From NCBI GenBank assembly GCA_050250895.1, contig JBFWNU010000002.1:320001-384000 (forward strand): a DNA stretch of 64,000 nt. The letters are read 5' to 3'. This document shows, piece by piece, positions 12,303 to 38,019 of the stretch. The stretch is from Vulcanimicrobiota bacterium (GTDB lineage: Bacteria; Vulcanimicrobiota; Xenobia; Xenobiales; JADMJV01). Numbering within the stretch: the first letter of the stretch is position 1; each line of letters begins with the position of its first letter. The translations under genes and the position numbers were made by a program. The notes beneath the pieces were generated by a model. It saw nothing but the letters and a program-made list of their open reading frames with translations, had not been told where the DNA came from and did not search any database.

Positions 12303-15300
12303 ATGGTTAATCCGACCAACAATCACATCCACAGAGCCGAAACGGGTGCCACTGGCAAGCCACCGGCCAAAGCCCGACCCGAAACCGAGACCCCGGTTGA
12401 ACCGCAAGACTCGGCTCAAGTAGGCCAACCAACCCACGGCAAAGAGCGCCTGATCGGCGCGGTGGTCCGGGTCGACCCCGACAGAATTGGTCTCAAACGC
12501 GTTGACGACGCGGGCAACGAAGAGTCTTCCAGCATGCTGGCCTTTATCCCCGAAGAGCGGCAGGCTGAATTCGAAAAGATGGGCGCCGTCGTGCCCGAGT
12601 ATGTGGCCGTTCGCTCCGACCTCAACATGCCCGAAGGCAGCAGCATCGAGCCGGTCGCTCTTGAAGCCCCGGCCAACCCTGCCAACACCACCATCGCCCG
12701 CACCATGGAAGTGCCCAAGGCGATGCTGATGCAAGACCCCGACACCGGCCGCGCTCCCATCGAGGATTTTCACGCTCGCCTGGTTCCCAATGATGGCCAG
12801 GTGATGTTCAAAGAAGATATCGAGCGTCTACGACCCAAGACCCACGACCTCAAACTGGCCGATTCGGCCGCGGGCGAAGCCATCGAGAAGCGCCGTAACA
12901 TGCTTAACGGTGTGTCGACTTTCGCCAACCTGATCACCCAGACTTCGTTGCTGGGGTTCTGGAACATCCCCGGCGCCCCCCTCATCGCGGTGGGCACCTC
13001 TGGATTTACCATCAACAAGACGATGGAGACCCTCAAAGGGCTCGAAGACCAGAAAGACTATGTCCGCCGGCAGCGCAAAGAATCCGACGGCGACATCGTT
13101 CAGTTGCGCGTCAACGACCAGTTTTCACGACCGGTGTCGGCCAAGGAAGAGACCAAGCGGCTCTCGAGCCAAATTCTCCAGACCAAAGCCCAGCTGGCTT
13201 CCAACGGGCTGCTGCTCGGGGCGGGCGCCAGCAGCATTCTGGGTCTGATGGCCAACGGCGGAGCCCTCGGTACCGGCACCATGGCCACTGTCCTGGCCGG
13301 CGCCACCGCCTGGACCCCGTGGCTGGCCGGCGCCAGTCTGGCCATGGGTTATGGCGCCAACGTCATGACCACCGTCAAAGAACTCAAAGACCTGGCTGCC
13401 GAGAAGAAAGAGCTGCAAGCGGCCCTGGCCCGGGGCGAGACCACCGTCAAGCACACGCATGAGGTGATCCATCCCCAACTCAAACAGCAGGTCGCCATCA
13501 AAGAAGTCGATATGCCCATCGACAAGCGGCTCGAAGAGATCTCCAAGGCTCAGAAGAAGAACGTTTCGATGCTGGCCCTGATCGGTGGCGGTGTCGGTTC
13601 GGCCGCGGCCACTTTCGGCTTCGCTGCCCCCATGGCCCTGGCCCTGCCGATTTCGCTCGGTCCCGCTGGCGCCATCGTTGGTTTCAACGCCATCGGCGAC
13701 ATGGTCAAGCTCAACGGCGAGAAGAAAGAGCTCAAAGCTCTGCAAGAGTCTGGCCAGACGACCGTCAAGCAGCAGATTCAGATGCCCGAGGGCGAGTGGG
13801 TCGAAAAAGAAGTTCCTATCGAGCAGCGCCTCGACCAGCTGCAGCGTCAGATCAACGGCAAGAAGATTCTGCTCAGCGCCGTGGGCTCGGGCGTGGCCTT
13901 CGCCGGCATGACCGCCGGCCTCGGCATGGGAATGCTGGCCGCCGCCCCCGTGGTTCTGGTGCCCGGCATCGTGGCCGCCGCGCTCTTCCCGAAAGAGACC
14001 AAAGCTATCGTCCAGGGAATCTGGAAATTCATCACCAACATCTTCGGCAAAGAAGCCCGCTCGCGCAAGGCCACCCTCAGCGAAGTGAAGGGACAGGCCA
14101 AGGCCTTCGTCGAGAAGATGAGCGAGCAAGAAAAAGCCCTCAAGCAGGCCAATCCCGACGCCTATGCCAAGCTTAAAGAAGCCTTTGGCAGCTACGCAAC
14201 TTCGACCGACCCGGGTGCGCGGGCTGCTCAGATCGAAGAGATTGGCAAGGCCCTCAACAGCCTCAAGACGGGCGCCCCCGACGCCACTAGGGCCTGGCTG
14301 ACCAGCTTCCGTGAACTCGACAAATCGGTCGAGGGCGAGTGGCGTAAGCACCAGGTGGTGGCCCACATGGTGAGCGATGTGGCCAAGAATGTGTTGGGCA
14401 ACGAGACTCTCAGGACCCGCCTCGACGAAGTCGGTTTTCAGGGCGACATGCGTGATCGCTACGAAGACTTCGTCACCCATCAGCTGGATCCGGGCCAGAC
14501 CCACCAACGCGAATTGCTGGGCAAGGCAGCCAAGGGCGACCAGTCGGCCGGCAAGGAACTCACCATCGACGGTCAGTTTGGTGCCGCCCAGGCGGTCGAG
14601 ACGGCCCGCGAGATGTTTGGCGCCGAGCTGCTCGATTCGATGATCGAGGCCGTGATGAAGTCCGAGAACGGCCAACTGTCGAAAGAGCAGCTCGACGGAT
14701 TCGCCAAGGTAGCCAGTGAAAAGCTCGGTCAAGAGATTCCGGGCCAGGGGCTACAGGCCCTGGCCCAGGGTATCGGTGTGCTCGAGGGCAAGATTCCGCT
14801 CGATTTCTCGGGCGTTTCGGCCCAGCCCCAGGAGCTACCCAAGCTCAACGCCCACGAGCAAGCCATGGCCGAAGCGTTCGGCAAGATGATGGAAGCCGAC
14901 CCCGAGGCCGGCGCCAAACTCAATCAGGCTCTGCTGACCCTCAGCGGCCAGTTCGAGCACGAGCCCAAGGATCAGGCCGAAGCGGCCAAGATGTTCCAGC
15001 AGGCCACCCAGAATCTGAGTGGAGCCATCGCCACCTTCGAGCAGAAGGCTCCCGAAGCGCTGGCCGCCTGGCAAGACGCTCGCAGCAAGCAGATGGAGGC
15101 TTTCCTCGACGCCAACTTCGACAAGTCTGCCTTCGAACAGCTGCTCAACTCGAGTCAGGTGCAGGCTGCTCTCAAAGACACCGGCACCTCGGCCGAAGAG
15201 GCTCAGGTGCTCTTCAAGAAGCTGGGCAAAGCTAATCTGACCCAGGATTTCAGCGAGCTGGCCCCGATTCAGCAAGCCACCGACCCCGCCAGCGCCGAGG

Positions 15301-16064
15301 GTAAAGCCAAGAAGGTTCTGGAAGCTTTCGAACGGGCCGGCCTCGAGCACGTGGCCAAAGAAGCCGGCGGCACGCCGGCCGCGGAAGGTCCCACCCAGGA
15401 ACAGGTGCAGGGTTACATCAATCAGGTCTTCTCTTCCAACCCCACCATCGCCGAGACGCTGCAGTCGCCCGAGCTCGAAGCTGTGGCCAAAGAGCACGGC
15501 GTCGAGCCCGAGTTCGCCCGCCAGTCGTTCGTGAGACTGCTGGCCAGCGATGTCGACCCCCGTCTCAGCGCCGATCTCAAAGCCCGGCTCGAGGCCAACG
15601 ACGCCGAGGCCGCCAAGGAGATGGCGGTTTCCACTGCCGTGCTCGAGCTGGTGCAGTCCAAGTCGAAAGCCGCCGATGAGGCTCGCCTGGCCTCGATCGA
15701 CCCCGGACAACTCAAAGCGGCTGAAAACGAAATCTTCGCCAGCGACATGATGAAGACGGCCCTGGAACTGCCCGAGTTCGGCCAGCTTCAACAGCATCTG
15801 CAGGCCGACAGCAACACCGTCGAAGAGGCTGCCCGTATCTTGATTCGCGCCCAGCTCACGCAAAGTGGTAGCGAGATTCAGGCGCTCAACGAGGCAGCCA
15901 ACAAAGGCGACACCGAGGCTTTGAAGAAGCTGCAGTTGCTGCAGGGTGTGCAGCAAGCCACCGCCGCCGTTCAACAGGCGGCAGCTCAGCAGCAGCAACC
16001 ACCCGCCGCCCCGCCCGCTCCTGCGGCCGAAGCGCCCGCCGAAACGGTCGAAGCCAAACAGTAG
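12303..16064 (+). CDS. Large hypothetical protein with repeated coiled-coil + Gly-rich hydrophobic modules and helical C-terminal repeats
   Basis: 1253-aa ORF with typical codon bias; internal repeats such as KKELQAALARGETTVKH / KKELKALQESGQTTVKQ. Confidence 0.85.
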   Translation: MVNPTNNHIHRAETGATGKPPAKARPETETPVEPQDSAQVGQPTHGKERLIGAVVRVDPDRIGLKRVDDAGNEESSSMLAFIPEERQAEFEKMGAVVPEYVAVRSDLNMPEGSSIEPVALEAPANPANTTIARTMEVPKAMLMQDPDTGRAPIEDFHARLVPNDGQVMFKEDIERLRPKTHDLKLADSAAGEAIEKRRNMLNGVSTFANLITQTSLLGFWNIPGAPLIAVGTSGFTINKTMETLKGLEDQKDYVRRQRKESDGDIVQLRVNDQFSRPVSAKEETKRLSSQILQTKAQLASNGLLLGAGASSILGLMANGGALGTGTMATVLAGATAWTPWLAGASLAMGYGANVMTTVKELKDLAAEKKELQAALARGETTVKHTHEVIHPQLKQQVAIKEVDMPIDKRLEEISKAQKKNVSMLALIGGGVGSAAATFGFAAPMALALPISLGPAGAIVGFNAIGDMVKLNGEKKELKALQESGQTTVKQQIQMPEGEWVEKEVPIEQRLDQLQRQINGKKILLSAVGSGVAFAGMTAGLGMGMLAAAPVVLVPGIVAAALFPKETKAIVQGIWKFITNIFGKEARSRKATLSEVKGQAKAFVEKMSEQEKALKQANPDAYAKLKEAFGSYATSTDPGARAAQIEEIGKALNSLKTGAPDATRAWLTSFRELDKSVEGEWRKHQVVAHMVSDVAKNVLGNETLRTRLDEVGFQGDMRDRYEDFVTHQLDPGQTHQRELLGKAAKGDQSAGKELTIDGQFGAAQAVETAREMFGAELLDSMIEAVMKSENGQLSKEQLDGFAKVASEKLGQEIPGQGLQALAQGIGVLEGKIPLDFSGVSAQPQELPKLNAHEQAMAEAFGKMMEADPEAGAKLNQALLTLSGQFEHEPKDQAEAAKMFQQATQNLSGAIATFEQKAPEALAAWQDARSKQMEAFLDANFDKSAFEQLLNSSQVQAALKDTGTSAEEAQVLFKKLGKANLTQDFSELAPIQQATDPASAEGKAKKVLEAFERAGLEHVAKEAGGTPAAEGPTQEQVQGYINQVFSSNPTIAETLQSPELEAVAKEHGVEPEFARQSFVRLLASDVDPRLSADLKARLEANDAEAAKEMAVSTAVLELVQSKSKAADEARLASIDPGQLKAAENEIFASDMMKTALELPEFGQLQQHLQADSNTVEEAARILIRAQLTQSGSEIQALNEAANKGDTEALKKLQLLQGVQQATAAVQQAAAQQQQPPAAPPAPAAEAPAETVEAKQ

Positions 16065-16082
16065 CACCCGTTTTCAAAAGCA

Positions 16083-16115: not shown

Positions 16116-16178
16116 CATGTTCACAGAAAGTTTACCCTTGGCGAGAGTTCCTCCGTTATGGTCCCTCCAGGAGGAAGA

Positions 16179-18341
16179 ATGATCTCTGCTTTGACCTCGG
16201 TTCGAAACGCCCAGGCGTTTGGGACCAAACTGGCCGCACGGGAGGGGGAAATCGCGGGGCCACAGGATACGGCGCAGCTATCGCGAGAGATAGCGTCGCT
16301 AGACTCCAAGTTGCCCGGGCATGTGGAAGGGGAAGTGCTGGTCAAGCTGCACCGCGGCTTCCAGGCTGACGAGGCCTTCGTAGGCGACTATGGAGCCACC
16401 CTGGTCGAGGAATTCGACATTCCTCCCGACATGCGCCAGAAGATCGGCGGCAAGATGGTCCATCTCCGCTTGCCCGAGGGCGTGACCACGGCCGAAGCCA
16501 TGGTCGCCATGGGGCGCGACGGCCGGGTGGCCTACGCTTGCGCCAACGAACTCCTGTCCCACTACGGAGACCCGGTCTTTCCTCCCGATCTCGACACCCG
16601 GCTGTGGGGTCTGCACAACACCGGGCAAGACGAAGGCACGGCCGACGCCGACATCGATGCCCCCGAAGCCTGGGCTATCACCACCGGCAAGGGCCTGCAA
16701 GAAAACGGCCCGGTCATTGCCGTGATCGATACCGGCATCGACACCGGCCACCCTGATCTCAGGGCCAACCTCTGGACCAACACCGGCGAGATTCCTGGCG
16801 ACGGCATCGACAACGACGGCAACGGCGTCATCGACGATGTGCACGGCTACAACGCCATCGACGGTAGCGGCAATCCCTATGATGACAATCGCCACGGCAC
16901 GCACTGCGCCGGCACCATCGCCGCCGATGGCACCAACGGAGAGGGCGTGGTCGGGGTGAACCACAAGGCCCAGCTGATGGCCGTCAAGTTCCTCTCGGGC
17001 CAGGGTAGCGGCACCACCGCCGACGCCGTGAAAGGTCTGCTCTATGCCGACCGCATGGGAGCCCGCATCACCTCGAACTCGTGGGGAGGCGGTGGCTTCA
17101 ATGAAGCCCTGCGCGACACCCTCGAGGCCTCTCACGCTCTGCACATCTTCGCGGCCGGCAACTCGAACAACGACAACGATGCCCGCGCCTCCTATCCGGC
17201 TTCGTACGACCTCGACAATATCGTCTCGGTGGCCGCCAGCGACCGCAACGACCAGCGGGCCAGCTTCTCGAACTATGGGGCTACCAGCGTCGACCTGGCC
17301 GCCCCGGGCAAGACCATCTTCTCGACGGTGCCGGGAGGCCGCTACGCCACGCTCAGCGGCACCTCCATGGCCACGCCCCACGTGGCCGGCGTGGCCGGAC
17401 TCATCGCCAGCGCCTATCCCGAGGCCAGCAACGACGACATCAAGGGTCGCTTGCTCAATGGCGTCGACCGTCTACCCCAGTTGACCAACAAAGTCCTTAG
17501 CGGGGGTCGCCTCAACGCCGCCAACTCGCTCGAAGACGACCACATCGCCCCGGGAGCTCCCAACGATTTTCGCACCGAGGCCGCTGGCGCGCGCACGGTG
17601 CGCCTGAGCTGGACGGCCACCGGTGACGACGGGTGGTGTGGTCGCGCCTCGGCTTACCAGCTGCGCCATGCCGACCGGCCTATTGTAGAAGGCCCGGCGG
17701 GAGAGTCCGAAGTCGGCTTTGATCAGGCCACCACGCTGGTCGCTCCCAAGCCGTCCGAAACCGGCACCATCGAGCAGGTGATGCTTAACCTGCCGCCCTC
17801 GGGTCAACCTCGGACCCTCCACTTCGCCCTCAAAGTGGCCGACAACCTCGGCAATCTCTCGGAGATCCGCACGGCCACCGCCCAGATTCCCGCCTCGACC
17901 GTGGCCTTTCAGGACAATTTTGACAACAACCAGCGGGGCTGGACGGCCGAAGCCGATTGGGCCCGCATCGACGAGCCTGGTCGAGGCAAAATCTGGACCG
18001 ACAGTCCCAACGGCAACTACGCCAACGAGCGCAACGCCTCGCTGGTGTCGCCCCCCATCAATCTGGCGGCCATTCGCAACAGCGCGCTACTTTTTGACAC
18101 TCGCTACGAGATCGAGCAGAGCTTCGACCGCCTCCACCTCGAGGTCTCCACCGACAACAAGATCTGGAACAAGCTCGAGGACTTCACCGGCCGCAGCGAG
18201 TGGAAGCAGCATCTGGTCGACCTCTCGCGCTACGACGGCCAGACGGTCCGCCTGCGCTTTCGACTCGAAAGCGACAGCTCGGTGGTGCGCGACGGTTTCT
18301 ATCTAGACAATATCTCGGTCGTCGGCGACCCCAACATCTAG
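16179..18341 (+). CDS. S8 subtilase paralog 1 (pro-domain, catalytic domain, Fn3-like and C-terminal jelly-roll domains)
   Basis: [16 protein letters not shown] and GTSMATPHV motifs; AGGAGG RBS before ATG 16179. Confidence 0.95.
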   Translation: MISALTSVRNAQAFGTKLAAREGEIAGPQDTAQLSREIASLDSKLPGHVEGEVLVKLHRGFQADEAFVGDYGATLVEEFDIPPDMRQKIGGKMVHLRLPEGVTTAEAMVAMGRDGRVAYACANELLSHYGDPVFPPDLDTRLWGLHNTGQDEGTADADIDAPEAWAITTGKGLQENGPVIAVIDTGIDTGHPDLRANLWTNTGEIPGDGIDNDGNGVIDDVHGYNAIDGSGNPYDDNRHGTHCAGTIAADGTNGEGVVGVNHKAQLMAVKFLSGQGSGTTADAVKGLLYADRMGARITSNSWGGGGFNEALRDTLEASHALHIFAAGNSNNDNDARASYPASYDLDNIVSVAASDRNDQRASFSNYGATSVDLAAPGKTIFSTVPGGRYATLSGTSMATPHVAGVAGLIASAYPEASNDDIKGRLLNGVDRLPQLTNKVLSGGRLNAANSLEDDHIAPGAPNDFRTEAAGARTVRLSWTATGDDGWCGRASAYQLRHADRPIVEGPAGESEVGFDQATTLVAPKPSETGTIEQVMLNLPPSGQPRTLHFALKVADNLGNLSEIRTATAQIPASTVAFQDNFDNNQRGWTAEADWARIDEPGRGKIWTDSPNGNYANERNASLVSPPINLAAIRNSALLFDTRYEIEQSFDRLHLEVSTDNKIWNKLEDFTGRSEWKQHLVDLSRYDGQTVRLRFRLESDSSVVRDGFYLDNISVVGDPNI

Positions 18342-20632
18342 GGGATGGTGACGGCGCGGGCCGGATGGGCGCGCGGTGCCAGGGCGAGGTTGTCCCAGGT
18401 GATTTTGCCGTTGGTGTCGGTCCCATCGAAGTCGACCCGTCGCCCATAGTGGTCGGCCTTGGAGCCGTCGCCGCGGTTTTCGACATGGACGCAATGACTG
18501 CGGCTCGAGACCATGACCGCCTCGTGGTCGTCCACCTTCCAGGGGGCGATGCGGTAGGCGTTCTGACGAAGGCCGAGATAGCGCAGGCAGTTGGGGGCGA
18601 ATTCGCCGTTGTTGAGCCAGTCTAGCGCCTTCTCGTAGCTCTTGACCGGCGCGTGCTTGCCGGTTTGCAGGCGCTTGGCCATGACGGCAAAGCAGGCATC
18701 GGCCATCCGCCGCCCGACCCCCGAGCCGCGAAAGTTCGAGCTAGCGCGAGCCAGGTCCAGTTCGGCCCGAGAAAGGGTGAGTTGATGACCGTCTTGCATG
18801 ACCACCCGCCAGCCATCGTCGGTGGGGGAGAGCTCATCGAAAACCCCGGTGCCATATTGCTGAAGAGCAGCTTTGATGACGGCCACCGAGACGCAGTTGC
18901 CTTCGACACTCTGGGCCCAGGAGCGGGTCAGCTCGTCGTCGGGACTGGGTAGCAAGTCGGCAAAAGCTGCCAGGTCAGGCGTCTGGGTGGCCACCCTTTC
19001 GAGCCTGGCCGCCAGCTTCTGATCGAGGGGACGAGCCGTGAGCAGCAGGGCGGCAAGCTCGCCCACGGTCGGCTCCTTTTCGCTAAGATAGCGGATGCCA
19101 ATCTGCAGCAAAGCCAGCTTCTCGGCCGGGTGGCCAAAGCCGTGGCGGGCTTCGAGTTGGGTGAGCAATCCCACGCATTTCCCCAGCTCTCCTGGGCTAT
19201 TCGCCAGCGATTTGAGACCCTCGCGAGCAGCCGCGCAGTCGACCTCGAAGTCTTTCTTGCTGCGAGGAAGCTGGGCCGCCAGCCCGCGATCGAGCACCCG
19301 AGCCAAAAGCGATCCCTCGCCCTGCTCGGACAGTCCGCGCAAGCCTCCGGCCAACAAGCTCAGCATGGCCGCCTCGGCGGGCTCGTTGCGCAGCCGGGTA
19401 GCCAACCCCGAGTCGGATCCTGTGAGTCGCTCCCAGGCGTCCGCGCCCAGCCGCTTGAGGCCTGTTTGGGCCTCGTTTACAAGCGAATCGCGAAAATAGC
19501 CCTCGGTCCAGCGGTCCAGGGCCGCCAGGGCGCCGGCCTGATCCGGCGAGGCCAGCGGCAGGAGACGATCCACCATTTTGCGCGCCGTCTCTCGACCGCG
19601 CTGGGTGTCGGGATCTCTTTCCACCACCGCCGCCACCAGCGAGGCTGCCCCCGTCAACTCTGCTTCGGGGCGCTGCAGCACTTGCCAGGCATAGGCCTGC
19701 ACCCTCGGGGTGAGCTCGAGGTCGGCGTCGAGCACCTGGCTGCAGGCCTGGGCCAGGCTGGCGGGTGTGGCCGCTCCGGCGGTGGCTCCCTCGAGCGCGG
19801 CCTCGTGAATCTGGCTGCGGGTGCGGGCCCGGGTTACCCCGGCGGCCATCTGGCTGGCCCAATCGCGCCAGGCCGGATGGCAGTCAGCCAGAGCGGCACT
19901 GGCCACCAGGGCTCGATCTTCCCAACCGTCGAGAGGTTCGACCATGGCCAAACCCAGGGCGGCCGAGGACTCTTCTCGCCCGTGCGCCTCGAGCCCCCGT
20001 TGGATGGCTGCGACCTGAGCTCGAGCATCGACCAGGGCCAGTTGCTTGACGCGTTGCAGCAGTCTGGCCTCGGCCGTGTCCGGGAGGCGCTCGAGCAGCC
20101 GGCCGGCTAGATCCAGGCTGGCCGGCGAGTTGGCTGTCGCGGCCAGCATCTCGCCCAGGGCGATGGGTTCGGTGTCTTGCTCGCGAGCTAACAGCAGCAG
20201 TCGCTGGCGAGCCGAAACCTCGGGCATCCTCAGCACGAACGAGCTGAAGTGGCCGGGGCTGGTTTCGAGCAAAGAAGCCACGGCGGCCTCGGCGGGCTGG
20301 TCTCCCTGGCCGGCCACCGTCAATTCTCTCAAAGCCAACGCGGCCAGCATCGAAGCCGGAGCCGCCCCCAGAGTCGCCTGCTCGGCCAGCTGAGCCAGGA
20401 CATCTTTGTAGACGGCCAGTCGAGCCCCGGGCTCGACGGCAGCGCCCATGGCCAGGGTCAGGGCCACCGGCCCGTGATAGTTGACCTCTCGACCCTGATA
20501 CTGGTCGATGGCCTCCAAGGCCGAAGTGGCGGCCTCGAGACGCTTTCGCTCGCGGCCAAAGAGATGAAACCGTCCGGCTCCCTTGAGCCCCCTCAGGGCC
20601 AGGGTCGCCGGAGCAGAGCCGGGTTGAACCAT
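18338..20632 (-). CDS. Helical-repeat protein with C-terminal putative papain-like Cys-protease domain
   Basis: 764-aa ORF; QSVEGNCVSVAVIKAA...SHCVHV motif. Confidence 0.7.
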   Translation of the reverse strand: MVQPGSAPATLALRGLKGAGRFHLFGRERKRLEAATSALEAIDQYQGREVNYHGPVALTLAMGAAVEPGARLAVYKDVLAQLAEQATLGAAPASMLAALALRELTVAGQGDQPAEAAVASLLETSPGHFSSFVLRMPEVSARQRLLLLAREQDTEPIALGEMLAATANSPASLDLAGRLLERLPDTAEARLLQRVKQLALVDARAQVAAIQRGLEAHGREESSAALGLAMVEPLDGWEDRALVASAALADCHPAWRDWASQMAAGVTRARTRSQIHEAALEGATAGAATPASLAQACSQVLDADLELTPRVQAYAWQVLQRPEAELTGAASLVAAVVERDPDTQRGRETARKMVDRLLPLASPDQAGALAALDRWTEGYFRDSLVNEAQTGLKRLGADAWERLTGSDSGLATRLRNEPAEAAMLSLLAGGLRGLSEQGEGSLLARVLDRGLAAQLPRSKKDFEVDCAAAREGLKSLANSPGELGKCVGLLTQLEARHGFGHPAEKLALLQIGIRYLSEKEPTVGELAALLLTARPLDQKLAARLERVATQTPDLAAFADLLPSPDDELTRSWAQSVEGNCVSVAVIKAALQQYGTGVFDELSPTDDGWRVVMQDGHQLTLSRAELDLARASSNFRGSGVGRRMADACFAVMAKRLQTGKHAPVKSYEKALDWLNNGEFAPNCLRYLGLRQNAYRIAPWKVDDHEAVMVSSRSHCVHVENRGDGSKADHYGRRVDFDGTDTNGKITWDNLALAPRAHPARAVTIP

Positions 20633-23669: not shown

Positions 23670-23734
23670 GCCGCCGGCTCCAACCCGTCAACGGCCACGA
23701 CGGCCGCCCTTCACCGACAATTTGAAAGGCCCAA

Positions 23735-23820: not shown

Positions 23821-23833
23821 TGGCGCAGCCCCA

Positions 23834-25839: not shown

Positions 25840-26667
25840 CTAGAGTCCGGCCAGGTTCTCCTGGGCGCGGGCTTTCCATTCGAGTTCGCTGGCTTGAGCG
25901 CGGGTTACCCGGGCCTGATGGGTCGAGTTGTCGGCCTGGCGGTTGAAGTCGTCGGCTTTGGCGTCGGTGGCGGCTGCTTCGGCCCCGAGCTTGTTGGCCT
26001 GGCTGACTAGAAATTGCTGGCGGGTGGTGGTGTCCTGGATGGAAAGGACTACGGTGGCCGCCTGGCTGCGCAGCGAGGCGACCTCCTGGCCGGCGGCGCT
26101 GACGGCATGCTGAAAGCCGCTGGCGGTCTTGAGGTGGCTGTCGGCCAGGGCGATGAGGGCGAAGGCCCCTTCCAGGGCGCATGTGTCGCCGTTGGCGCCG
26201 GCCAGCAGCTTTTCGCCCTGGTAGCGATAGAGAATTCCTTCTTGTTCGGCGTCCGAGGCGTCTTCGCGAGCCTGGGCGGCGCGTTGTTCGGCGGCGGCGA
26301 TGGCGGCTTCGAGCTGGTTTTTCTTGGCCGTCTGGGCGGTGACTTGATTGGTCAATTCGGTGGCTTCGCCTTTGGCCTGATCGGCGGTGACGTGCTGGAA
26401 ACCGGCGGTCGAGTGTTGCTCAGCCGCTTTGTTGCGCTGAGTCGAGGCGTCGCTATCCAGGGTCTCGGCCTTGGCATTGAGGTCGGCTGCCTGCGAACGA
26501 AGCTTGGCCGCGCTTTCTTTGAGGGTGGTAGGGTTGAGCCCGACCACCACCTTGTCTTCGGTGACGATGACCTCGACGGGGGCGTCGGCCAGCGAGGCGG
26601 CGCGAGCGACCAGGTTGGCGAGAGGGGAAGCAAGTGGAGAGCTGTCTGGCGTGCTAGGTAGAATCAT
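25840..26667 (-). CDS. Ala-rich coiled-coil protein
   Basis: Heptad-like A/Q/K-rich sequence with good codon bias. Confidence 0.7.
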   Translation of the reverse strand: MILPSTPDSSPLASPLANLVARAASLADAPVEVIVTEDKVVVGLNPTTLKESAAKLRSQAADLNAKAETLDSDASTQRNKAAEQHSTAGFQHVTADQAKGEATELTNQVTAQTAKKNQLEAAIAAAEQRAAQAREDASDAEQEGILYRYQGEKLLAGANGDTCALEGAFALIALADSHLKTASGFQHAVSAAGQEVASLRSQAATVVLSIQDTTTRQQFLVSQANKLGAEAAATDAKADDFNRQADNSTHQARVTRAQASELEWKARAQENLAGL

Positions 26668-26836
26668 CCTCACTCTATTATGAGCTGTAAGGGGTCGATT
26701 TTTGTTGCCAATCTGTTGCCGCCCGGACAGGTCACCGATCCGAGATTTGTCAGAACGGTCATATAACGGTTACTTCTGCGTGTTGACCCCGGTTTAGACT
26801 GCCAACGGGCCCACCAGGCCCATAGAGAGGTGCGTC

Positions 26837-29047
26837 ATGATCACAACCATCAAGAGCAGTCCGACTATTGCTCCTCACATCGCGGCCAAAGCCGCCGAGC
26901 CCCTGGACCGCTTCGAGCCCTCCCGCGATTCTTTCTCGGTGGCCGAGGCCATCGATGCTTCTTCGGCCGAGGCGGCTTCGCTGCGCCTGAAGATGGCCGA
27001 CGAGGAGTATGTCCCCGGAGAAGTGCTGGTCAGGATGGCCCCCGGCCTCAAGGCCGCCAGTCTCGAAACTTTCGCCGCCGATTATGGCGCCAAGGTGAAG
27101 TGCCACTTCGATGTGCCTGCCAGCATGCTGGCCGCCATCGGGGGCGAGATGATGTCTTTGTCGTTGCCCGAGAGTCTCGATGTGGCCGGAGCGCTGGCCG
27201 CCATGCGGCGCGACCCGCGGGTGGCGGTGGCCGAGTCCAACGACATTTTGCACGCCGTGGTCGACCACCCCGAGCCGGTGACCCCCAACGATCTCGACGG
27301 CAAGCTCTGGGGGCTTTCCAACACCGGTCAAGACGGCGGCATCGCCGGGGTCGACTGCAAGGCCAGCCTGGCCTGGAACATCAGTACCGGCACCAACGAG
27401 GGTCCGGTGGTGGCGGTCATCGACACCGGAGTCGACTTCGAGCATCGCGATCTGCGCAACAACATCTGGCGCAATCCCAATGAGGCGGCCGACGGGGCTG
27501 ATACCGACGGCAACGGGGTGATTGACGATCTGGTCGGCTACAACGCCATCGACGACAGCGGCAACCCCACCGACGAGAACGGTCACGGCACTCATTGCGC
27601 CGGCACGATCGGGGCCGAGGGCAACAACGGAACCGGAGTAGTTGGCGTCAACTGGCGAGCCCGGGTCATGCCGTTGCGCTTCCTGGGCGCGACCGGTTCG
27701 GGCACCACCGAAGACTCGATCAAGTGCGTGCTCTACGCCTCGAAGATGGGGGCCAAGATCACCTCCAACTCGTGGGCCGGCTTCAAATACAACCAGGTTC
27801 TCTATGATGCGATGGCCGCTTCGCCCGCGCTGCATGTGTGCGCCGCCGGCAACGAAGGCTACAACAACGATGTGCGCCCGGTGTATCCGGCTTCCTACGA
27901 GTTGGACAACATCATTTCGGTGGCCGCTCATGATCGCCAGGACCGCCTGGCCAGCTTCTCCAACAGCGGCTCGGGCTCGGTGGATCTGGCCGCTCCCGGC
28001 GTGGACATCTACTCGACCAAGCCGAGTAACGCCTACCAGAGCTTGAGCGGCACCTCCATGGCCACGCCCCATGTGGCCGGCGTGGCTACGCTGGTCGCTT
28101 CAGCCTACCCCGATGCCACGCCCGAGGACATCAAGCGGCGGATCCTCTCGGGGGTCGATCAGATGCCCCAGCCGTGGGCCGGTCGTCTGACCACGGGTGG
28201 TCGCCTCAACGCCCTCAAAGCGCTCGAGAACGACCAGGTCGCACCGGCTCCGGCCTCCGACCTGGCGGTCAAGCAGATCGGCACCGAGTCGGCCCAGCTG
28301 CAGTGGACGGCCACCGGTGACGACGGGACCGAGGGGCACGCTAATGGATACGAGCTGCGCTACTCTGACCATCCCATCGTGGACGGCGAGGCCGCGCCTG
28401 GTCAGGTCGGATTTGACCAGGCCACCAAGGTGCGCATCGAGGCTCCCAAAGACTCGGGTCAACTCGAGTCGACGGTGGTCAAGTTCGCTCCTTCGGGCCA
28501 GGAGCGCAAGATGTATTTCTCTCTGAAAGTCATCGATAACGTCGGCAACCGCTCGCCGGCCCAGACCGTCGAGGTGGCCGTGCCCACCACGCCAGTGGTG
28601 CTCGAGGATAACATGGACGGCCAGCGCTCCGAATGGACCGCCGATGCTGGCTGGGCTCGTGTCGAGGTTGAAGGTCGCGGTCAGGTCTGGACCGATAGCC
28701 CGGCTGGTGATTACGACGCCAACTACGACGGGGCCATCACTTCCAAGGAGTTCTCTCTGGAAGGCCTCAAGAACAGCAAGCTCAACATCGACCTGAAATA
28801 TGATGTCGAGCAGAAGCACGACGCCGTTACCGTCGAGGTCTACGGCAGCAGTTGGTGGATGCGTAAATGGCGACAGGTAGCTTCTTTCGACGGCATTGAC
28901 GCTTGGAAGACTCACCAGATCGACATCTCGAAGTATGACGGACAGAAAGACCTCAAGGTCAGAGTGCGCCTCGAGACCGACAGTTCTCGTCACCGTGACG
29001 GGGTCTATGTCGACAACGTCGTCATCACCGGCGAGCCCGACAAATGA
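26837..29047 (+). CDS. S8 subtilase paralog 2
   Basis: [12 protein letters not shown] and GTSMATPHV motifs; same domain order as paralogs 1 and 3. Confidence 0.95.
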
Positions 29048-31146: not shown

Positions 31147-31388
31147 GACTCTCTTCTCGGAGGTTTGCCTCGCGGCTTAAGTCGCTGCACGCCGCGCCGC
31201 TCGCGGGACGCCTTGTCGGCCCCCTGGCCCGCGGCTTGTCGGGGCGCACCCTTAAACAATCATGAAAATGTTCATACGTAGTTCAAAACATGGCCCGTTC
31301 AAATCAATATTCTCCTTCTAGACGTCTCACCGGCCCGTGCTACAGGGGCCAGTTTAAACCGATAAAACCCAACAACATCTAGGAGAGT

Positions 31389-33716
31389 ATGATGATTTCC
31401 CAAATCCGCCCTCAGACCTATGTCTCGTCCACGCCCAGCGCTCGCGCTGCCGCTCCCGCGGCCCAGCAAGAAGCCGCTGCCCCTTCCGAGTCGGTGTCCC
31501 TTTCCGGCGCCGCCCCTCGGGTCGACCTGGCTGGCGTTCTTTCCGCCACCGCCAAAGAAGCTGCTTCGCTCGCTTCCAAACTTCCTGAGCACGTCGAAGG
31601 CGAAGTGCTCGTCAAGCTCGGCCCCAACGCCTCGCTCGACGCCATGACCGACTTCGCCAGCGACTACGGCGCGACGATGATCGAGAAGTTCGATGTTCCC
31701 CAGAACATGTTCAAAGCTTTCAACGGTGAGCTCGTTCACCTGAAGCTGCCCGCCGGCATGTCCACCGCCCAGGCGATGGCCGCCATGGACAAAGACCCCC
31801 GCGTCCAGTACGCCGCTTCCAACGACATCCTGCACACCCTCGGCAACGCCGAGCCGGTGGTTCCCAATGACCTCGACAGCCGCCTCTGGGGCATGAACAA
31901 CACCGGTCAGACCGGCGGAACCGCCGATGCCGACATCGACGCTCCTGAAGCCTGGTCGATCACGACCGGCAAAGGCGCCGCCGAGAACGGCCCCGTCATC
32001 GCCGTCATCGACACCGGCGTCGACTACAGCCACCCCGACCTCCAGGCCAACGTCTGGGTCAACCCTAACGAGATTCCTGGCGACGGCATCGACAACGACA
32101 ACAACGGCGTCATCGACGACGTGCACGGCTACAACGCCACCAACGACAGCGGCGACCCGATGGACGACAACGACCATGGCTCGCACTGCTCCGGCACCAT
32201 CGCCGGCCGCGGCAACAACGGCGAAGGCGTCGTTGGCGTGAACTGGAACGCCCAGGTTATGGGTGTCAAGTTCCTCACCGGTTCCGGCTCCGGCACCCTG
32301 GCCGACGCCATCAAAGGCGTGATGTATGCCAGCCAGAACGGCGCCCGCATCACCTCCAACAGCTGGGGTGGCGGTGGCTTCAACCAGGCCCTCAAAGATG
32401 CTCTGGCCGCTTCCCCGGCTCTGCACATCTTCGCGGCTGGTAACGAGAGCAACGACGACGACCGTCGTCCTACCTACCCGAGCGCTTTCGACCTCGACAA
32501 TATCGTCTCGGTCGCCGCTACCGACCACAACGACCAGCTGGCCAGTTTCTCGAACTACGGCGCCACCAGCGTCGACCTGGCTGCCCCTGGCGTGGACATT
32601 CTGTCCTCGACCCCCGGTGGCACCTACCAGAGCTTCAGCGGAACCTCGATGGCCACTCCTCACGTGGCTGGCGTGGCTGGCCTCATCGTCAGCCAGTTCC
32701 CCGAGATCAGCAACGAAGAGCTCAAGTCGCGCCTGATGAACAGCGTCGACAAGAAGCCCCAGCTCGAAGGCCGCGTGCTTTCCGGTGGTCGCCTCAACGC
32801 CTTCAACGCTCTCGAAGAAGACAACATCGCCCCGGGCGCTCCCAACGACTTCCGTGGCACTTCCGAAGCCCCCGGCGGCGCGGTCCTCAACTTCACCGCC
32901 ACCGGTGACGACGGCTGGTGCGGCCAGGCCAACGGCTACGTGCTGCGCGTCAGCGACCGTCCCATCGTCGAGGGTGAGGCCGCCGAAGGCCAGACCAGCT
33001 TCGACGCCGCTAGCCCCATCGCCACCAACGCCCCCAGCGTGACCGGCACCATCGAGAACATCCCCGTGTCCCTGCCCCTCTCGGGCCAGGAGCGCACCTA
33101 CCACTTCGCGATGAAGGTGAAAGACAACGTCGGCAACCTGAGCGAGATCCGCACCACCAGCGTCACCGTTCCGGCCGCGACCGTAGCCTTCGAAGACACC
33201 ATCGACGGCGACACCAGCAACTGGAGCACCGAGAGCTGGGGTCAGGTGGAAGTCGACGGCCGCAAAGCCTGGACCGACTCCCCGAACGGCGACTACGGCA
33301 ACGACCAGAACAGCGCGCTGACCACCCGCGAGATCAGCCTCGGCCAACTGCGCGGCAGCACCTTGATGTTCGACTCGAAGTACGCTCTCGAGAACCGCTA
33401 CGACAAAGTCGCGGTCGAGATCGGTGAAGTCGCTCCTCCTCCGCCGCAGGATCCCGGTCAGGGCGGCGGCGGCCAGACCAAAGAGGTCATCAGCTGGAAC
33501 AAAGTTGCCGAGTTTACCGGCAGCTCCGACTGGGCCACCAACTCCATCGACCTGTCGGCTTACGATGGCAAGAACGTCCAGATCCGTTTCCGCCTCACCT
33601 CCGACGGTTCCGTCAACCAGGACGGCTTCTACCTGGACAACGTCGTCATCGCTGGCGACCGCGCTCCCGAGCAGCCTCCTCAGCAGCCCCCCCAGCAGCC
33701 CCCCACCCAGGGCTAA
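31389..33716 (+). CDS. S8 subtilase paralog 3 with Pro/Gln-rich tail
   Basis: VIDTG, HGSHCSG and GTSMATPHV motifs; AGGAG RBS; strong codon bias. Confidence 0.95.
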   Translation: MMISQIRPQTYVSSTPSARAAAPAAQQEAAAPSESVSLSGAAPRVDLAGVLSATAKEAASLASKLPEHVEGEVLVKLGPNASLDAMTDFASDYGATMIEKFDVPQNMFKAFNGELVHLKLPAGMSTAQAMAAMDKDPRVQYAASNDILHTLGNAEPVVPNDLDSRLWGMNNTGQTGGTADADIDAPEAWSITTGKGAAENGPVIAVIDTGVDYSHPDLQANVWVNPNEIPGDGIDNDNNGVIDDVHGYNATNDSGDPMDDNDHGSHCSGTIAGRGNNGEGVVGVNWNAQVMGVKFLTGSGSGTLADAIKGVMYASQNGARITSNSWGGGGFNQALKDALAASPALHIFAAGNESNDDDRRPTYPSAFDLDNIVSVAATDHNDQLASFSNYGATSVDLAAPGVDILSSTPGGTYQSFSGTSMATPHVAGVAGLIVSQFPEISNEELKSRLMNSVDKKPQLEGRVLSGGRLNAFNALEEDNIAPGAPNDFRGTSEAPGGAVLNFTATGDDGWCGQANGYVLRVSDRPIVEGEAAEGQTSFDAASPIATNAPSVTGTIENIPVSLPLSGQERTYHFAMKVKDNVGNLSEIRTTSVTVPAATVAFEDTIDGDTSNWSTESWGQVEVDGRKAWTDSPNGDYGNDQNSALTTREISLGQLRGSTLMFDSKYALENRYDKVAVEIGEVAPPPPQDPGQGGGGQTKEVISWNKVAEFTGSSDWATNSIDLSAYDGKNVQIRFRLTSDGSVNQDGFYLDNVVIAGDRAPEQPPQQPPQQPPTQG

Positions 33717-33778
33717 GCAGAGGCTAGTCGCCTAGCGTCGAGACGGTAGACGTCAGACGGTAGACGGTAGCTAACAGG

Positions 33779-33806
33779 ACCCCGTGACTTCGGTCACGGG
33801 GTTTTT
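33779..33806 (+). terminator. Intrinsic terminator after S8 paralog 3
   Basis: ACCCCGTGAC-TTCG-GTCACGGGGT-TTTT. Confidence 0.88.
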
Positions 33807-33815
33807 CGCTTGTTC

Positions 33816-34017
33816 TCGGCCTGCGGCCGACAAGGAGCTGTTTCGGCCTGCGGCCGACAAGGAGCGTCGGCTTCGCCGACGAGATGGGAGCTCTTGCTAC
33901 GCTCGAGAGATGGGAGCGGAGCGGAGCTCCGAGATGGGAGCGAGTTGAGCTGTCGCTCAACTCGAGGTCTTGAGGTAGTCGACGCTTCGCGTCGTAACTC
34001 TGGGGCGGCTTCGCCGC
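33816..34017. repeat. Cluster of REP-like mini-hairpins, including copy B (33931-34017) of the HNH-linked element
   Basis: TCGGCCTGCGGCCGACAAGGAGC x2 (33816, 33843), GAGATGGGAGC x3, GTCGGC-TTC-GCCGAC, CGACGC-TTC-GCGTCG, GCGGC-TTC-GCCGC. Confidence 0.8.
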
Positions 34018-34055
34018 GGAACCGCCCTGATGGCCCTACCGGCGATTCGGGCAGC

Positions 34056-35035: not shown

Positions 35036-35120
35036 CGCCCCTCGCCGGGCCTGGCCGGGCAGCAGCTGAAAGCGAGCAGAGGGCGAAGGCCCGACCCCGG
35101 CAGATAGCGAAGTAGAAAGG

Positions 35121-35735
35121 ATGGATCCGCTGCGCCAGAAGGCTAGTTCGGCAGGCTTTGACCTGTCGGATCCGTTCCTACGCTACCCGCTTTTCACCCG
35201 GCTAGCGGGGTTGGCTCATGAGGCTTTCGATGAAGAAGACCTGGAGGGCTTTTGCGGGGTGATGCGTTCGCTTTTGTCTCTGACCGAGTCGACTCACAAT
35301 CCGGTGTTGCGTGAGTGCGCCAGGGCCCTGTTGGGGCGGCCGGCCTGGATCGCGCCGGTCTTGGCCGAAGTCGATGCCCAGCTCGAGCATCCGGCCCTGG
35401 TCGAGAACCTGGCCTTCGAGCTCAACTCTCTGTGCCAAGAGGCGGTGGAGAGACAAGAGTGGGACCTGTTCGTCTTCAGGTTGACGCTGCTCGACTCGCT
35501 GGCCGAGAAAAGGCCCAGTCCGGCCATCGGCGAGGGGATCTCGCGTCTGCTTGGATTGGTGCTGCCCAAGTTGCCGCCTGACGCCCACCTGGCGGCCGCC
35601 CTCGAGGCGGGGCGCGGTTTGCAGCGGCGAGGCTTTCCGCAGCCGAAGCATTGGGGTGAGTCGCTCCGGCGCCGGCTCGAGCTGGCTCCGCCCGAGGAAG
35701 CGAACCAGCTCAAGGCCGAACTCGAACAACTCTAG
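35121..35735 (+). CDS. Hypothetical helical protein
   Basis: AAAGG before ATG; in an operon with the downstream GATase. Confidence 0.65.
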   Translation: MDPLRQKASSAGFDLSDPFLRYPLFTRLAGLAHEAFDEEDLEGFCGVMRSLLSLTESTHNPVLRECARALLGRPAWIAPVLAEVDAQLEHPALVENLAFELNSLCQEAVERQEWDLFVFRLTLLDSLAEKRPSPAIGEGISRLLGLVLPKLPPDAHLAAALEAGRGLQRRGFPQPKHWGESLRRRLELAPPEEANQLKAELEQL

Positions 35736-35737
35736 CC

Positions 35738-36589: not shown

Positions 36590-36886
36590 GCGTTCCTGGG
36601 CCACCAGACCGCGGGCAGGCAGGCTGGTGCGGACTTTTTCCAGGGTGGCCAGGCTCCAGGGCTCGAGCATGTCGGCGGTGATGTTCTCTCCACCCCCGGG
36701 GACCGGCTCGCGGCCGGCCAGCACGAACTGCTCCTGGGTGAACAACTCCTCGAGGGCGCGACGATAGTCCTCGTCGAGCACTTCCAGTTGACCCACTCCT
36801 GCCAGGGCCCGCACGGTGCCCACTACGGCTCCGGGCTTCCACTCTCCGTCGCTACGTTCGAGCCGGCGAATCTCCCAGTCAATCAC
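36566..36886 (-). CDS. Small hypothetical protein coupled to the upstream metalloprotease
   Basis: GTG start overlaps the upstream stop (GTGA); ~106 aa, acidic. Confidence 0.6.
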   Translation of the reverse strand: MIDWEIRRLERSDGEWKPGAVVGTVRALAGVGQLEVLDEDYRRALEELFTQEQFVLAGREPVPGGGENITADMLEPWSLATLEKVRTSLPARGLVAQERSGQHDRH

Positions 36887-38019
36887 GATACGCCCTTCCA
36901 GGGAACTTCCATCAGTTCGCACTTGGAGCGCATGTAGTCGCGCAGCGTCGAGTCGGCCAGGGCCGGCAGAAAGCCTTTCACCGAGCGGGTGAGGTGGGTC
37001 CGAAAGGCCCCGTCGTCTTGATAGCGACTGAGCATGTCTCGGATAGAGAGTTCTGGCTGTTGGTGCAGCCATCCCGGCAGGAACGTGGTCAAGGCTTTGT
37101 CGGGATTGAGTTGGCGCGGAACGGCCCCGAGCTTCTCGAGGTAGCGACCTTGACCGTTGCAACCGAAGCCGGCCATCGAGATGGCCTCGTCATCGGTCAG
37201 GCTGCCGGCGCAGGTCTTGACCTGGAAGAACTCGGAGAAGCACTCGGCCCAGTCCTCTTTCTTGTTGACGGCAGCATAGTTGGTGACGAAATCGCCGCCG
37301 GGACCCACGGCCTTGGGGTCGCCCTGGCCGAACGGTTCGGTCGAGAGGCCGTAGCGGTTGTCGGCAGCGTGGCCCATCTCGTGGTAGAGCACCTTCTTGA
37401 CGTGGTTGAGCGACTCGAGGGGATTCTTCTTGAGACCCCTCGAGGCCATCCGCGACAGCGAGATCGAGGTTTGCTCGCCCGATTTGACGGCGGTGCCCAG
37501 AACGTCGCGGCCGGTCTCGCGGCTTTTGCCCAGGTCGTCGATCATGAAGACATCTTTGATCACCGGCATCACCATGCCATGGGGGTCGACGGCGGCGAAC
37601 TGGGCCAGCGCCTTTTCCACCGTTTTGAGTTCGGCGGGGCTGGCGCCGTGGATGTTGACCACATGGGTGACTCCGCCAGTGCCCTGAAGTTCGAGCCGAT
37701 GGACCCCAACCGCGCTGGCCTGACGCTGCAAGTCGAGATGATCGGCGTGGGTGAGAACCCCCCCGGCTGCCGGCTTGGGTGTGGCCTCTTCGGTAACTTC
37801 CATGGCCAGCACGGTGGGATTGTTGGCGGGCGCGGTGGCGACGGGCTGGGGGGCGGGCGGTTCAGGTGGGCTGACGGTCGGCGGAGCCGGGGCCAGGGTG
37901 ACGGAATCCGAGGCGGTCGGAGTCTCCTCGGCCCGAACCACGGCCGAGGCCGCCGGTCTCGGTCGTTCGAGCCGGCCGACCTGGACGGCTGGTTCTCTCT
38001 GTAGAGGGCCGATTGCCAC
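36883..38019 (-). CDS. Zincin metalloprotease (anthrax-LF/ATLF-like motif) with Pro-rich N-terminal leader
   Basis: YHEMGH and NYAAVNKKEDWAECF motifs; TATAAT-N5-GTG. Confidence 0.75.
   Translation of the reverse strand: MAIGPLQREPAVQVGRLERPRPAASAVVRAEETPTASDSVTLAPAPPTVSPPEPPAPQPVATAPANNPTVLAMEVTEEATPKPAAGGVLTHADHLDLQRQASAVGVHRLELQGTGGVTHVVNIHGASPAELKTVEKALAQFAAVDPHGMVMPVIKDVFMIDDLGKSRETGRDVLGTAVKSGEQTSISLSRMASRGLKKNPLESLNHVKKVLYHEMGHAADNRYGLSTEPFGQGDPKAVGPGGDFVTNYAAVNKKEDWAECFSEFFQVKTCAGSLTDDEAISMAGFGCNGQGRYLEKLGAVPRQLNPDKALTTFLPGWLHQQPELSIRDMLSRYQDDGAFRTHLTRSVKGFLPALADSTLRDYMRSKCELMEVPWKGVS

Follow-up and report, generated by a model that had tools for sequence, protein, structure and literature searches.

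As a rule, signals for type III export are too ill-defined to be predicted, and the motif recognised by the export gate has the consensus FxxxPhi near residue 40. According to PMC10936197, flagellar early substrates carry a non-polar signal at the very start of the protein, a linker that can be replaced, and a docking motif at residues 39-43. N-termini of 36 residues are enough for the flagellar export of non-flagellar proteins, as stated in PMC2764114. In Myxococcus, a Tad pilus and a needleless type III secretion system (T3SS) are used together for killing (PMC12075869).

In this study, we analyzed a window of 64,000 nucleotides from a Vulcanimicrobiota bacterium of the Xenobia (contig JBFWNU010000002.1, positions 320,001 to 384,000; coordinates below are those of the window). 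Together with 20 related loci, 392 kb of sequence was surveyed. Many extracellular-type proteins of Xenobia carry a three-part N-terminal leader where a Sec signal would be expected: a non-polar M-I-x-x-I start, a low-complexity spacer of 20-35 residues, and the motif P-x-[DE]-x-[VA]-x-[LI]-[SG]. The literature searched, which covered few subscription papers, contained no account of this leader, or of the promoter boxes, the C-terminal tag and the second gate described below.

Results

Proteins encoded in the window

The first-pass annotation had proposed that six proteins between positions 12303 and 38019 form an effector arsenal. Three are subtilases with the leader, S8-1 (16179..18341, + strand), S8-2 (26837..29047, +) and S8-3 (31392..33716, +); this assignment is borne out by their domains (Peptidase_S8, MAM and a prodomain of the fervidolysin type) and by the D/H/S catalytic motifs that they possess. 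Their closest solved structure is deseasin MCP-01 (E 2e-106), an extracellular protease. The fourth protein (36883..38019, -) also has the leader and is indeed an HExxH zinc metalloprotease, with the zincin pattern of HEMGH and a downstream Glu ligand in EDWAE. At the feature level it resembles Mx1/ATLF/M90-like proteins (Atlas 0.94-0.95), and no curated family scored above the cut-off. Only one close homologue was found, and because it is N-terminally partial, the leader of the metalloprotease could not be compared. The coiled-coil protein (25840..26667, -; 275 aa) has an S/P/A-rich N-terminus.

The 12303 protein (12303..16064, +; 1253 aa) begins with the leader and a beta domain, which are followed by three helix/beta-hairpin/helix units, their hairpins being hydrophobic, and by a helical tail. 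It matched no Pfam or NCBIfam family. A profile search found 33 homologues, 4 of which are N-terminal fragments, leaving 29 full-start members; a word-index search found only the query itself. Its earlier description as translocator-like was not confirmed: Foldseek returned no match at E<=0.001, and the fold model, which covers the N-terminal 562 residues (pLDDT 65, pTM 0.45), matched generic helical hairpins only (best Z 9.4, rmsd 3.3, 94 residues aligned). An Atlas lead to XopK-like clusters reached only 0.82. The protein is a candidate membrane-inserting effector.

Three further genes have a box B promoter (see below). The orphan at 18338..20632 (-; 764 aa), without signal peptide or leader motif, is added to the regulon by its box B promoter (20671-20639), and its mRNA is probably leaderless; a fold attempt on its C-terminal domain was uninformative (pLDDT 42, best Z 4.0). 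Two added members lie beyond 12303..38019: a glycine-zipper protein of 120 aa with a P/T/A-rich N-terminus (45854..46276 with its promoter, +) and an orphan of 271 aa with a variant C-terminal tag (62716..63570 with its promoter, +). As judged from sequence, a second, C-terminal tag exists besides the N-terminal leader. No Rfam family or tRNA was found in the window.

Absence of Sec/Tat signals

All six proteins lack a Sec/Tat signal, as first proposed; their first ~90 stop-to-stop residues contain neither a hydrophobic signal region nor a Tat motif or lipobox. These calls were made with our own heuristic rather than SignalP, and evident signal/TM proteins in the window were flagged. Since the stop-to-stop residues were covered, alternative starts rescue no Sec signal. 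The heuristic recognized signal peptides in 0/119 Xenobia-type S8 proteins versus 36/43 S8 proteins from other phyla, 31 of these 43 being from Caldilineaceae; among the 12 others, 6 passed, and several of the failing ones begin within the prodomain. The leader motif was found in 1/43 of the other-phyla proteins. Together with the motif counts given below, these comparisons support the view that the leader takes the place of the signal peptide of other-phyla homologues, is lineage-specific, and is common to unrelated extracellular-type families.

The leader motif

The six octapeptides of the first-pass annotation are found in frame near the starts of real genes, at 12402(+), 16260(+), 26900(+), 31482(+), 37914(-) and 26562(-). 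The training of a profile started from 120 S8 homologues, of which 3 were dropped by name; 98 of the remaining 117 had a usable leader, and 75 were left after de-duplication. The profile from these 75 subtilase homologues gave the motif named above at residues ~25-45 (motif start at residues 25-39), with an EM score per sequence of 8.5 versus 4.8-5.1 in 6 shuffles of the leaders.

The idea of one shared N-terminal motif held for five of the proteins (10-19 bits) and failed for the sixth. The motif is EPQDSAQVG in the 12303 protein (12399..12425, +; residues 33-41; 17.0 bits, shuffle p=0.001), GPQDTAQLS in S8-1 (16257-16283, +; 19.1 bits, p=0.001), EPLDRFEPS in S8-2 (26897-26923, +; 10.4 bits, p=0.015), APSESVSLS in S8-3 (31479-31505, +; 17.8 bits, p=0.001), and TASDSVTLA in the metalloprotease (37917-37891, -; 11.6 bits, p=0.003). 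The scores of the three subtilases depend on the training family; the other two of the five are independent of it. VTEDKVVVG of the coiled-coil protein (26565-26539, -) was not significant (3.7 bits, p=0.45).

At a threshold of 8 bits, 86/119 S8 homologues have the motif, with a shuffled mean of 7.1; the other 33 score lower, and some are nearly without a leader though box A is retained. Thus, the motif is not obligatory. The 12303 family is unrelated to S8 and lay outside the training set; 19/29 full-start members score at least 8 bits, versus a shuffled mean of 1.4 and a maximum of 4. The profile matched 0/88 cytoplasmic controls (gene classes were assigned by the analyst, and the class 'other' includes some ordinary proteins; the 300 called genes gave 236 non-redundant genes, 227 of which were scored). 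In these sets, the motif stands above shuffled and cytoplasmic sequences, the comparison that the first-pass annotation had named. The conservation gain of the motif over the spacer is modest (41% vs 28% identity). As to the rest of the layout, a hydrophobic residue occurs at positions 2-6 in 117/119 S8 homologues, Ile occurs at position 2 or 3 in 90/119 versus 10/88 cytoplasmic proteins, and the N-terminal PSTAQN fraction is 0.49-0.74 in the six proteins versus a cytoplasmic mean of 0.32.

A close match to FlgM was not confirmed, and the likeness suggested earlier is weak: six proteobacterial FlgM loci scored 2.5-8.4 bits, with one of the six at 8 bits or more (the start of L085 is unclear). 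Homology to FlgM was rejected, as no PF04316 match was obtained for the six N-termini and the E. coli control matched; the likeness in layout is kept. When E. coli FlgM was used as the query, the PDB yielded no FlgM. Other E. coli flagellar substrates mostly fail to match the profile, and FxxxPhi is present in 9/119 leaders, so that by this motif they do not class with flagellar early substrates.

Promoter boxes

Two direct-repeat boxes at a fixed spacing to the -10 element precede attack-type genes and no housekeeping gene. Box A lies 5' of S8-1 (GTTCAC-N5-GTTTAC, 21 nt, -10 TATGGT; 16119..16162, +), S8-2 (GGTCAT-N5-GGTTAC, 21 nt, TAGACT; 26757..26800, +) and S8-3 (GTTCAT-N5-GTTCAA, 21 nt, TATTCT; 31270..31313, +). 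A box A-like element upstream of the coiled-coil gene (GGCAAC-N5-GGCAAC, 21 nt, CATAAT; 26677..26720, -) was seen by eye and fails the strict rule. Box B, (T/G)TTCAG-N5-TTTCAG, 10 nt, -10 TAATCT, lies 5' of the 12303 gene (12234..12266, +). The metalloprotease gene, whose GTG start at 38019 is 5 nt behind TATAAT (38030-38025, -), has neither box.

Box A had 28 matches versus 2-5 in 3 shuffles, and box B had 18 versus 0-1, only at spacing 10. Since the C-terminal pattern and box B were drawn up by eye and then counted on the same data, only two points are independent: the spacing is fixed, and the elements are missing from controls. Boxes precede 17/195 non-S8 genes, including 0/86 cytoplasmic and 0/34 signal/TM genes. 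Among the non-S8 genes, the overlap of box and motif is weak (motif in 3/17 boxed vs 7/178 unboxed genes, p=0.045).

Direct repeats with an 11-bp period are a hallmark of OmpR/PhoB-family activators. By analogy, a regulator of this family probably acts here on sigma70-type promoters. The operators of Streptomyces (PHO box) and of OmpR-PhoB regulators consist of two 11-nt direct-repeat units (PMC4415409); the half-site of box A, GTTCAC(C), is identical to GTTCACC, the consensus in S. coelicolor, whereas the box B consensus differs. No pst/pho gene was found in the related loci collected, and a signal-peptide metallophosphoesterase in locus L012 has no box. Sigma28 promoters with a GCCGATAA-type -10 were rejected as a general feature, ACCGATAA being found upstream of S8-3 only; motif discovery on 37 upstream regions returned the direct repeats and not the sigma28 consensus.

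Export apparatus and the syntenic relative

In agreement with the first reading, the window contains no core gene of a flagellum or T3SS; pilin-type and GspF/PilC genes are present. Export genes were absent from the window and the 20 related loci. No chaperone family was found among the Pfam-scanned neighbors, which comprise 159/181 non-window proteins (the S8s and some ORFs that are short or lie at edges being left out); a chaperone may still be among the small orphans.

The relative Ca. Eudoremicrobium taraoceanii shows the same order of genes as the window, metK...priA...def-fmt-rlmN; next come hypothetical genes, 4077, 2268 and 2307 bp long. Its annotation table, the sole source for both clusters, lists a full flagellum cluster and a second cluster, flgBC-fliE-fliG-fliI-fliMN-fliPQQR-flhB-flhA, in which no gene is annotated as flagellin, hook-junction or stator. 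The best matches of the second cluster are flagellar genes of Firmicutes, and rod genes are kept. Since further flgG/flgB-like genes lie on other scaffolds, this cluster could, together with parts from other loci, still form a flagellum. This relative is predicted to be predatory (PMC9259500), and it is on this prediction that predation by the organism of the window would rest.

Discussion

The first-pass annotation had suggested a lineage-specific secretion route. What stands of this is the non-Sec leader across unrelated families, with 0/88 cytoplasmic matches; a type III route is plausible, because the syntenic relative encodes two flagellar-type gates and the leader layout matches flagellar substrates. 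On balance, we consider the leader to be probably a type III-like export signal. By way of the motif, the unfolded protein would dock at a chaperone or at an FlhA/FlhB-FliPQR gate of the flagellar type; export would occur in one step with the leader uncleaved, after which the subtilases would fold and mature outside via their prodomain. The favored machine would be a second flagellar-type gate as in the relative, and the alternative would be the motility flagellum. The cargo, namely subtilases, zinc and cysteine peptidases and hydrophobic-hairpin proteins, may digest or permeabilize prey or particles.

A tag for export or chaperone binding on a non-type-III route, such as an expanded Xenobia type IV pilus/T2SS-like machinery or an undescribed system, appears unlikely. 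Dozens of PilC/GspF, PilB and PilT genes in the TXSScan table of the relative, and the pilin and GspF genes of the window, would suit it, as would a leader motif unlike those of FlgM and of gate recognition, but the leader layout fits type III substrates. T2SS substrates reach the periplasm through Sec or Tat, and the six proteins have neither signal. The pairing in Myxococcus (PMC12075869) also speaks for a pilus-based route. Rather less probable is a function other than export, in which the proteins are internal or set free when cells lyse, the motif serving as a tag for folding, inhibition, localization or turnover. Intracellular subtilisins exist, and the motif is missing from the 33 low-scoring S8 homologues; yet the S8 proteins retain the prodomain-S8-MAM architecture seen with signal peptides in other phyla, and the motif recurs in non-homologous families and in no cytoplasmic control.

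Payloads of extracellular contractile injection systems (eCIS) also have N-terminal loading signals, according to PMC11495950 and PMC9054023, and the leader might load cargo into an eCIS or T6SS. This is very improbable, as none of the terms sheath, baseplate, tail tube and VgrG appears in the annotation of the relative, its only T6SS match among the TXSScan rows listed is a ClpB-like TssH, and the leader genes are dispersed, with none clustered with tail genes. There is similarly little chance that low-complexity N-termini, combined with inheritance inside one subtilase family, produce the similarity as an artefact. In favor of this are the paralogy of three of the six proteins, the failure of the coiled-coil protein and the P/S/T/A-rich leaders; the explanation is largely refuted by counts far above composition-preserving shuffles in the 12303 family and by the p value of the metalloprotease.

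The two promoter boxes and the C-terminal tag are new beyond the earlier observation. Together, a conserved leader and two boxes would allow the secreted arsenal of an uncultured lineage to be listed from sequence; marine members of this lineage, which have many biosynthetic clusters, are predicted to be predators. If a second gate is the route for the type III-like export that we favor, this would be a candidate independent conversion of a flagellum to secretion in a Terrabacteria-side phylum. A broader proposal is more tentative: a duplicated flagellar basal body in Xenobia may have become a dedicated secretion machine, independent of the proteobacterial injectisome, serving a large dispersed arsenal with a sequence-defined leader, perhaps a second class with a C-terminal beta-strand tag, and two OmpR-type regulons.

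Compared with known systems, type III signals are usually less sequence-conserved than the Xenobia leader, which speaks against the type III reading. FlgM of E. coli and Burkholderia is similar in its M-x-I start, S/T/A-rich spacer and V-x-L-S near residue 40, but has no P-x-D. The subtilases resemble deseasin MCP-01 and fervidolysin-like S8 proteins in catalytic domain, prodomain and catalytic triad, and differ in that the leader replaces the signal peptide and the C-terminal region contains MAM. The leader shares the order and spacing of three elements with flagellar early substrates (PMC10936197), whereas its motif sequence differs and its cargo is not structural. Campylobacter Cia/FspA/FlaC and Yersinia YplA (PMC2764114) likewise lack a Sec peptide and have an N-terminal signal of ~36 residues that is not cleaved, with enzymes as cargo and a flagellar gate in the lineage. 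Unlike these, the Xenobia signal has a recognizable conserved motif, the proteins are large multi-domain proteases with many paralogues, the genes have OmpR-type boxes and no sigma28 consensus, and a second gate is present in the relative. The needleless T3SS* of Myxococcus with its Kil Tad pilus (PMC12075869) is likewise a predator's type III core that has neither needle nor translocon and stands beside pilus systems; the second cluster of the relative differs from it in its rod genes and in its best matches to flagellar genes of Firmicutes.

Results

Six proteins had been proposed to share an N-terminal export motif: the 12303 protein, three S8 subtilases (S8-1 to S8-3), an HExxH metalloprotease (36883..38019, minus strand) and a coiled-coil protein (25840..26667, minus strand). 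All six motifs lie in frame and close to the gene starts. The subtilases have a prodomain, an S8 domain and MAM domains, with catalytic motifs, and the metalloprotease contains HExxH; its start is most plausibly the GTG at 38019, downstream of TATAAT. Family searches assigned no family to the 12303 and coiled-coil proteins. The claimed lack of a signal peptide held: a hydrophobicity heuristic, which flags the evident signal and membrane proteins of the window, was negative in all six, also over the stop-to-stop reading.

A genome scan gave 20 close loci, whose record titles name Xenobia, Vulcanimicrobiota, Eremiobacteraeota, Armatimonadetes or Burkholderiales, plus 60 distant ones in other phyla. 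Expectation maximization on 75 de-duplicated S8 leaders learned the motif x-P-x-[DE]-x-[VA]-x-[LI]-[SG], at 8.5 per sequence versus 4.8-5.1 in six shuffles. At a threshold of at least 8 bits, it occurred in the window and loci at 12/18 S8, 2/36 signal/TM and 8/85 other N-termini, and the expected distinction from cytoplasmic controls was borne out (0/88); internal windows passed in 0/18, 0/21, 3/64 and 2/70 cases, respectively. The motif was found in five of the six proteins (10.4-19.1 bits, p 0.001-0.015), but the coiled-coil protein does not share it (3.7 bits, p 0.45). The key independent test is the 12303 family, which has no relation to S8 and lay outside the training set; 19 of 29 full-start members passed (19/33 of all matches; shuffled mean 1.4).

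The signal heuristic was positive in 0/119 Xenobia-type S8 proteins versus 36/43 S8 proteins of other phyla with related C-terminal domains (31 of these 43 being Caldilineaceae), where the signal lies directly upstream of the same prodomain; the leader motif passed in 1/43. The nearest solved structure to the subtilase is deseasin MCP-01, an extracellular protease. The leader therefore sits where members of this normally secreted family have their export signal.

Upstream of the genes stand two direct repeats, newly found here, whose period is 11 bp. Box A (GTTCAC-N5-GTTCAC) lies 21-22 nt upstream of a TAnnnT hexamer (19 matches at 21 nt, 9 at 22 nt, 0-6 at other spacings), and box B (TTTCAG-N5-TTTCAG) exactly 10 nt upstream. 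In 392 kb there were 28 box A matches versus 2-5 in three Markov shuffles and 18 box B matches versus 0-1, raw counts that include near-identical genomes (22 and 12 non-redundant sites). In the window, box A precedes all three subtilase genes, box B the 12303 gene and a box A-like variant the coiled-coil gene; the metalloprotease gene has neither box upstream. Of the 18 S8 rows, 14 have box A upstream, and two of the misses are pieces of one edge-cut, split gene; none of 16 non-Xenobia S8 genes has it. Among non-S8 genes, 17/195 were boxed; within 200 nt upstream, no box was found for 86 cytoplasmic or 34 signal-bearing genes. One exception sits further out: a box A at 55401 (minus strand) is separated from a signal-peptide gene by 171 nt that include a terminator-like hairpin. 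Leader-like composition was enriched among boxed genes (p 9e-5), the motif as such only weakly (p 0.045). In the loci, the cargo behind a box included an M64 peptidase, another HExxH peptidase, an FKBP, a lipid desaturase-domain protein and glycine-rich hydrophobic orphans. The box geometry is that of OmpR/PhoB-family operators, which would suggest such a regulator, and the published S. coelicolor PHO box half-site, as excerpted, is identical to that of box A (PMC4415409). No sigma28 consensus emerged from the upstream regions, and sigma28 promoters were rejected.

Many box B genes begin 6-7 nt past the -10 hexamer (window 20639-20632(-), 62748-62755(+), several loci), and the metalloprotease gene 5 nt past TATAAT (38025-38019(-)); because of these short gaps, their mRNAs are probably leaderless. 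At 55401-55228(-), box A is followed by about 125 nt that contain several GGA motifs and close with a GC hairpin and a U-run; the folding z is -1.8 and Rfam gave no match. This stretch is a possible small RNA or attenuator ahead of the signal-peptide gene.

A C-terminal tag, Phi-x-Phi-G-[GDS]-Phi-x-Phi, mostly with basic residues after it, was found on 7/84 other proteins (0.08 expected) and on 4/508 non-Xenobia proteins; the 137 proteins classed as cytoplasmic, signal/TM or S8 lacked it, and three further variants were seen by eye. It occurs at window 63490-63570(+), L002:7218-8441(-), L002:6640-7221(-), L006:19202-20758(-), L007:9275-10678(+), L013:4171-6159(-), L015:18303-20759(-) and L013:2176-4167(+), L numbers denoting loci of the scan. 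The tag associates with box B (3/11, p 0.004) and may be another signal, for export or for a chaperone. It reads roughly V-x-I-G-G-V-x-V-x-K/R, on unrelated orphans without signal peptide, often downstream of box B; TEDKVVVG of the coiled-coil protein resembles it and the leader equally.

Further candidate cargo without signal peptide, with box, leader or both, comprises the FKBP (L013:7805-8641(+)), the lipid desaturase-domain protein (L013:11729-12709(-)), the M64 peptidase (L015:13312-14862(-)), an SLT transglycosylase (L001:6963-7667(+)) and a C39 peptidase (L002:16776-17417(+)). By eye, the C-terminal domain of a box B orphan (18341-18958(-)) has papain-like Cys, His and Asp spacing; a structure search with this domain gave no informative match. 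In its structural model, the 12303 protein has a beta domain and, after it, three helical-hairpin units that contain hydrophobic segments. No fold match stood out and an Atlas lead to XopK-like effectors was below the reliable range, so that the term translocator-like was not confirmed; the model suggests a candidate membrane-inserting protein, nothing further. Amid the cargo genes, 22613-24964 is a small mobile patch of lower GC (HTH, UPF0175/DUF3368 toxin-antitoxin-like pair, HNH gene). The stretch 33800-35130 is a GC-rich, non-coding array of repeats with a period of 315-324 bp and 94-nt sub-repeats, some of them identical.

Among the best 120 homologues of S8-3 (closest, 89% identity), those named were mostly MAG proteins of Ca. 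Eremiobacterota/Vulcanimicrobiota or "Armatimonadetes", with one from Bacteroidota. Locus L010 shares with the window the order fmt-rlmN-large orphan-S8 and encodes a 12303 orthologue (31% identity across 968 residues). L003, L009 and L001 are titled "uncultured Burkholderiales" though their genes match Xenobia loci (largely at least 70% identical in L003 and L009), and are probably mislabelled; in L001 the S8 gene is broken into two ORFs.

Discussion

The leader is a real, lineage-wide, non-Sec feature that replaces the signal peptide and is accompanied by co-regulation. It is probably a type III-like export signal, of which the literature searched yielded no published description.

At the level of annotation, Ca. 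Eudoremicrobium taraoceanii is a close relative by gene order: metK, 3408-bp kinase, priA, def, fmt, rlmN, followed by hypothetical genes of 4077, 2268 and 2307 bp (PMC9259500); the kinase has the same length as in the window. The Ca. Eudoremicrobiaceae are predicted motile predators (PMC9259500). In the excerpted annotation, this relative has a full flagellum cluster, including flagellin, stators and fliA, besides another cluster that comprises flgB, flgC, fliE, fliG, fliI, a lytic transglycosylase, flgG-like, fliM, two fliN, fliP, two fliQ, fliR, flhB and flhA (PMC9259500). For the second cluster (scaffold_78 genes 22-50), supplement 6 of PMC9259500 annotates neither flagellin nor hook-junction or stator genes, TXSScan scored an FlhA as SctV, and the sections available of that paper do not discuss this second gate, which merits study by itself. 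In the window, an FHA-domain protein adjoining rlmN (10314-10862(-)) gave a sub-threshold match to the T3SS YscD cytoplasmic domain (E 0.003) and is probably a generic FHA protein.

We favour, with moderate confidence, targeting of the cargo by the leader to a flagellar-type gate; the second gate would be a more likely route than the motility flagellum, since the promoters are not sigma28-type. The cargo may then attack prey or particles. A pilus-linked or as yet unrecognized export route is an unlikely reading, although the relative's annotation, as excerpted, has very many pilus/T2SS genes (PMC9259500). Pilin/pseudopilin-like genes and one GspF/PilC gene at window 5015-5449(-), 46664-49376(-) and 51865-52956(-) are consistent with this expansion. 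That the proteins are not exported at all is slightly less probable still; in the subtilases the leader occupies the export-signal position of a normally secreted family. Contractile injection seems very improbable, and no sheath, baseplate or VgrG term appears in the available annotation of Ca. E. taraoceanii. Against the motif itself, 33/119 S8 homologues fall below threshold, some with almost no leader, just 23/44 held-out S8 proteins pass and conservation is no more than modestly above that of the spacer; even so, we give an artefact equally little credence.

Targeting to a flagellar-type gate can be compared with known systems. Flagellar substrates are described, in the excerpts available, as being non-polar at their extreme N-terminus, which a linker joins to a docking motif around residue 40 (PMC10936197), and 36-residue N-termini as sending non-flagellar proteins through flagellar gates (PMC2764114). 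The Xenobia leader has this same layout. The first-pass annotation had likened it to FlgM. Membership was rejected: FlgM from six proteobacterial loci scored 2.5-8.4 bits on the leader profile, and no FlgM domain matched in the leaders. The likeness itself is kept, as FlgM of E. coli and Burkholderia resembles the Xenobia leader in its layout and in having V-x-L-S around residue 40.
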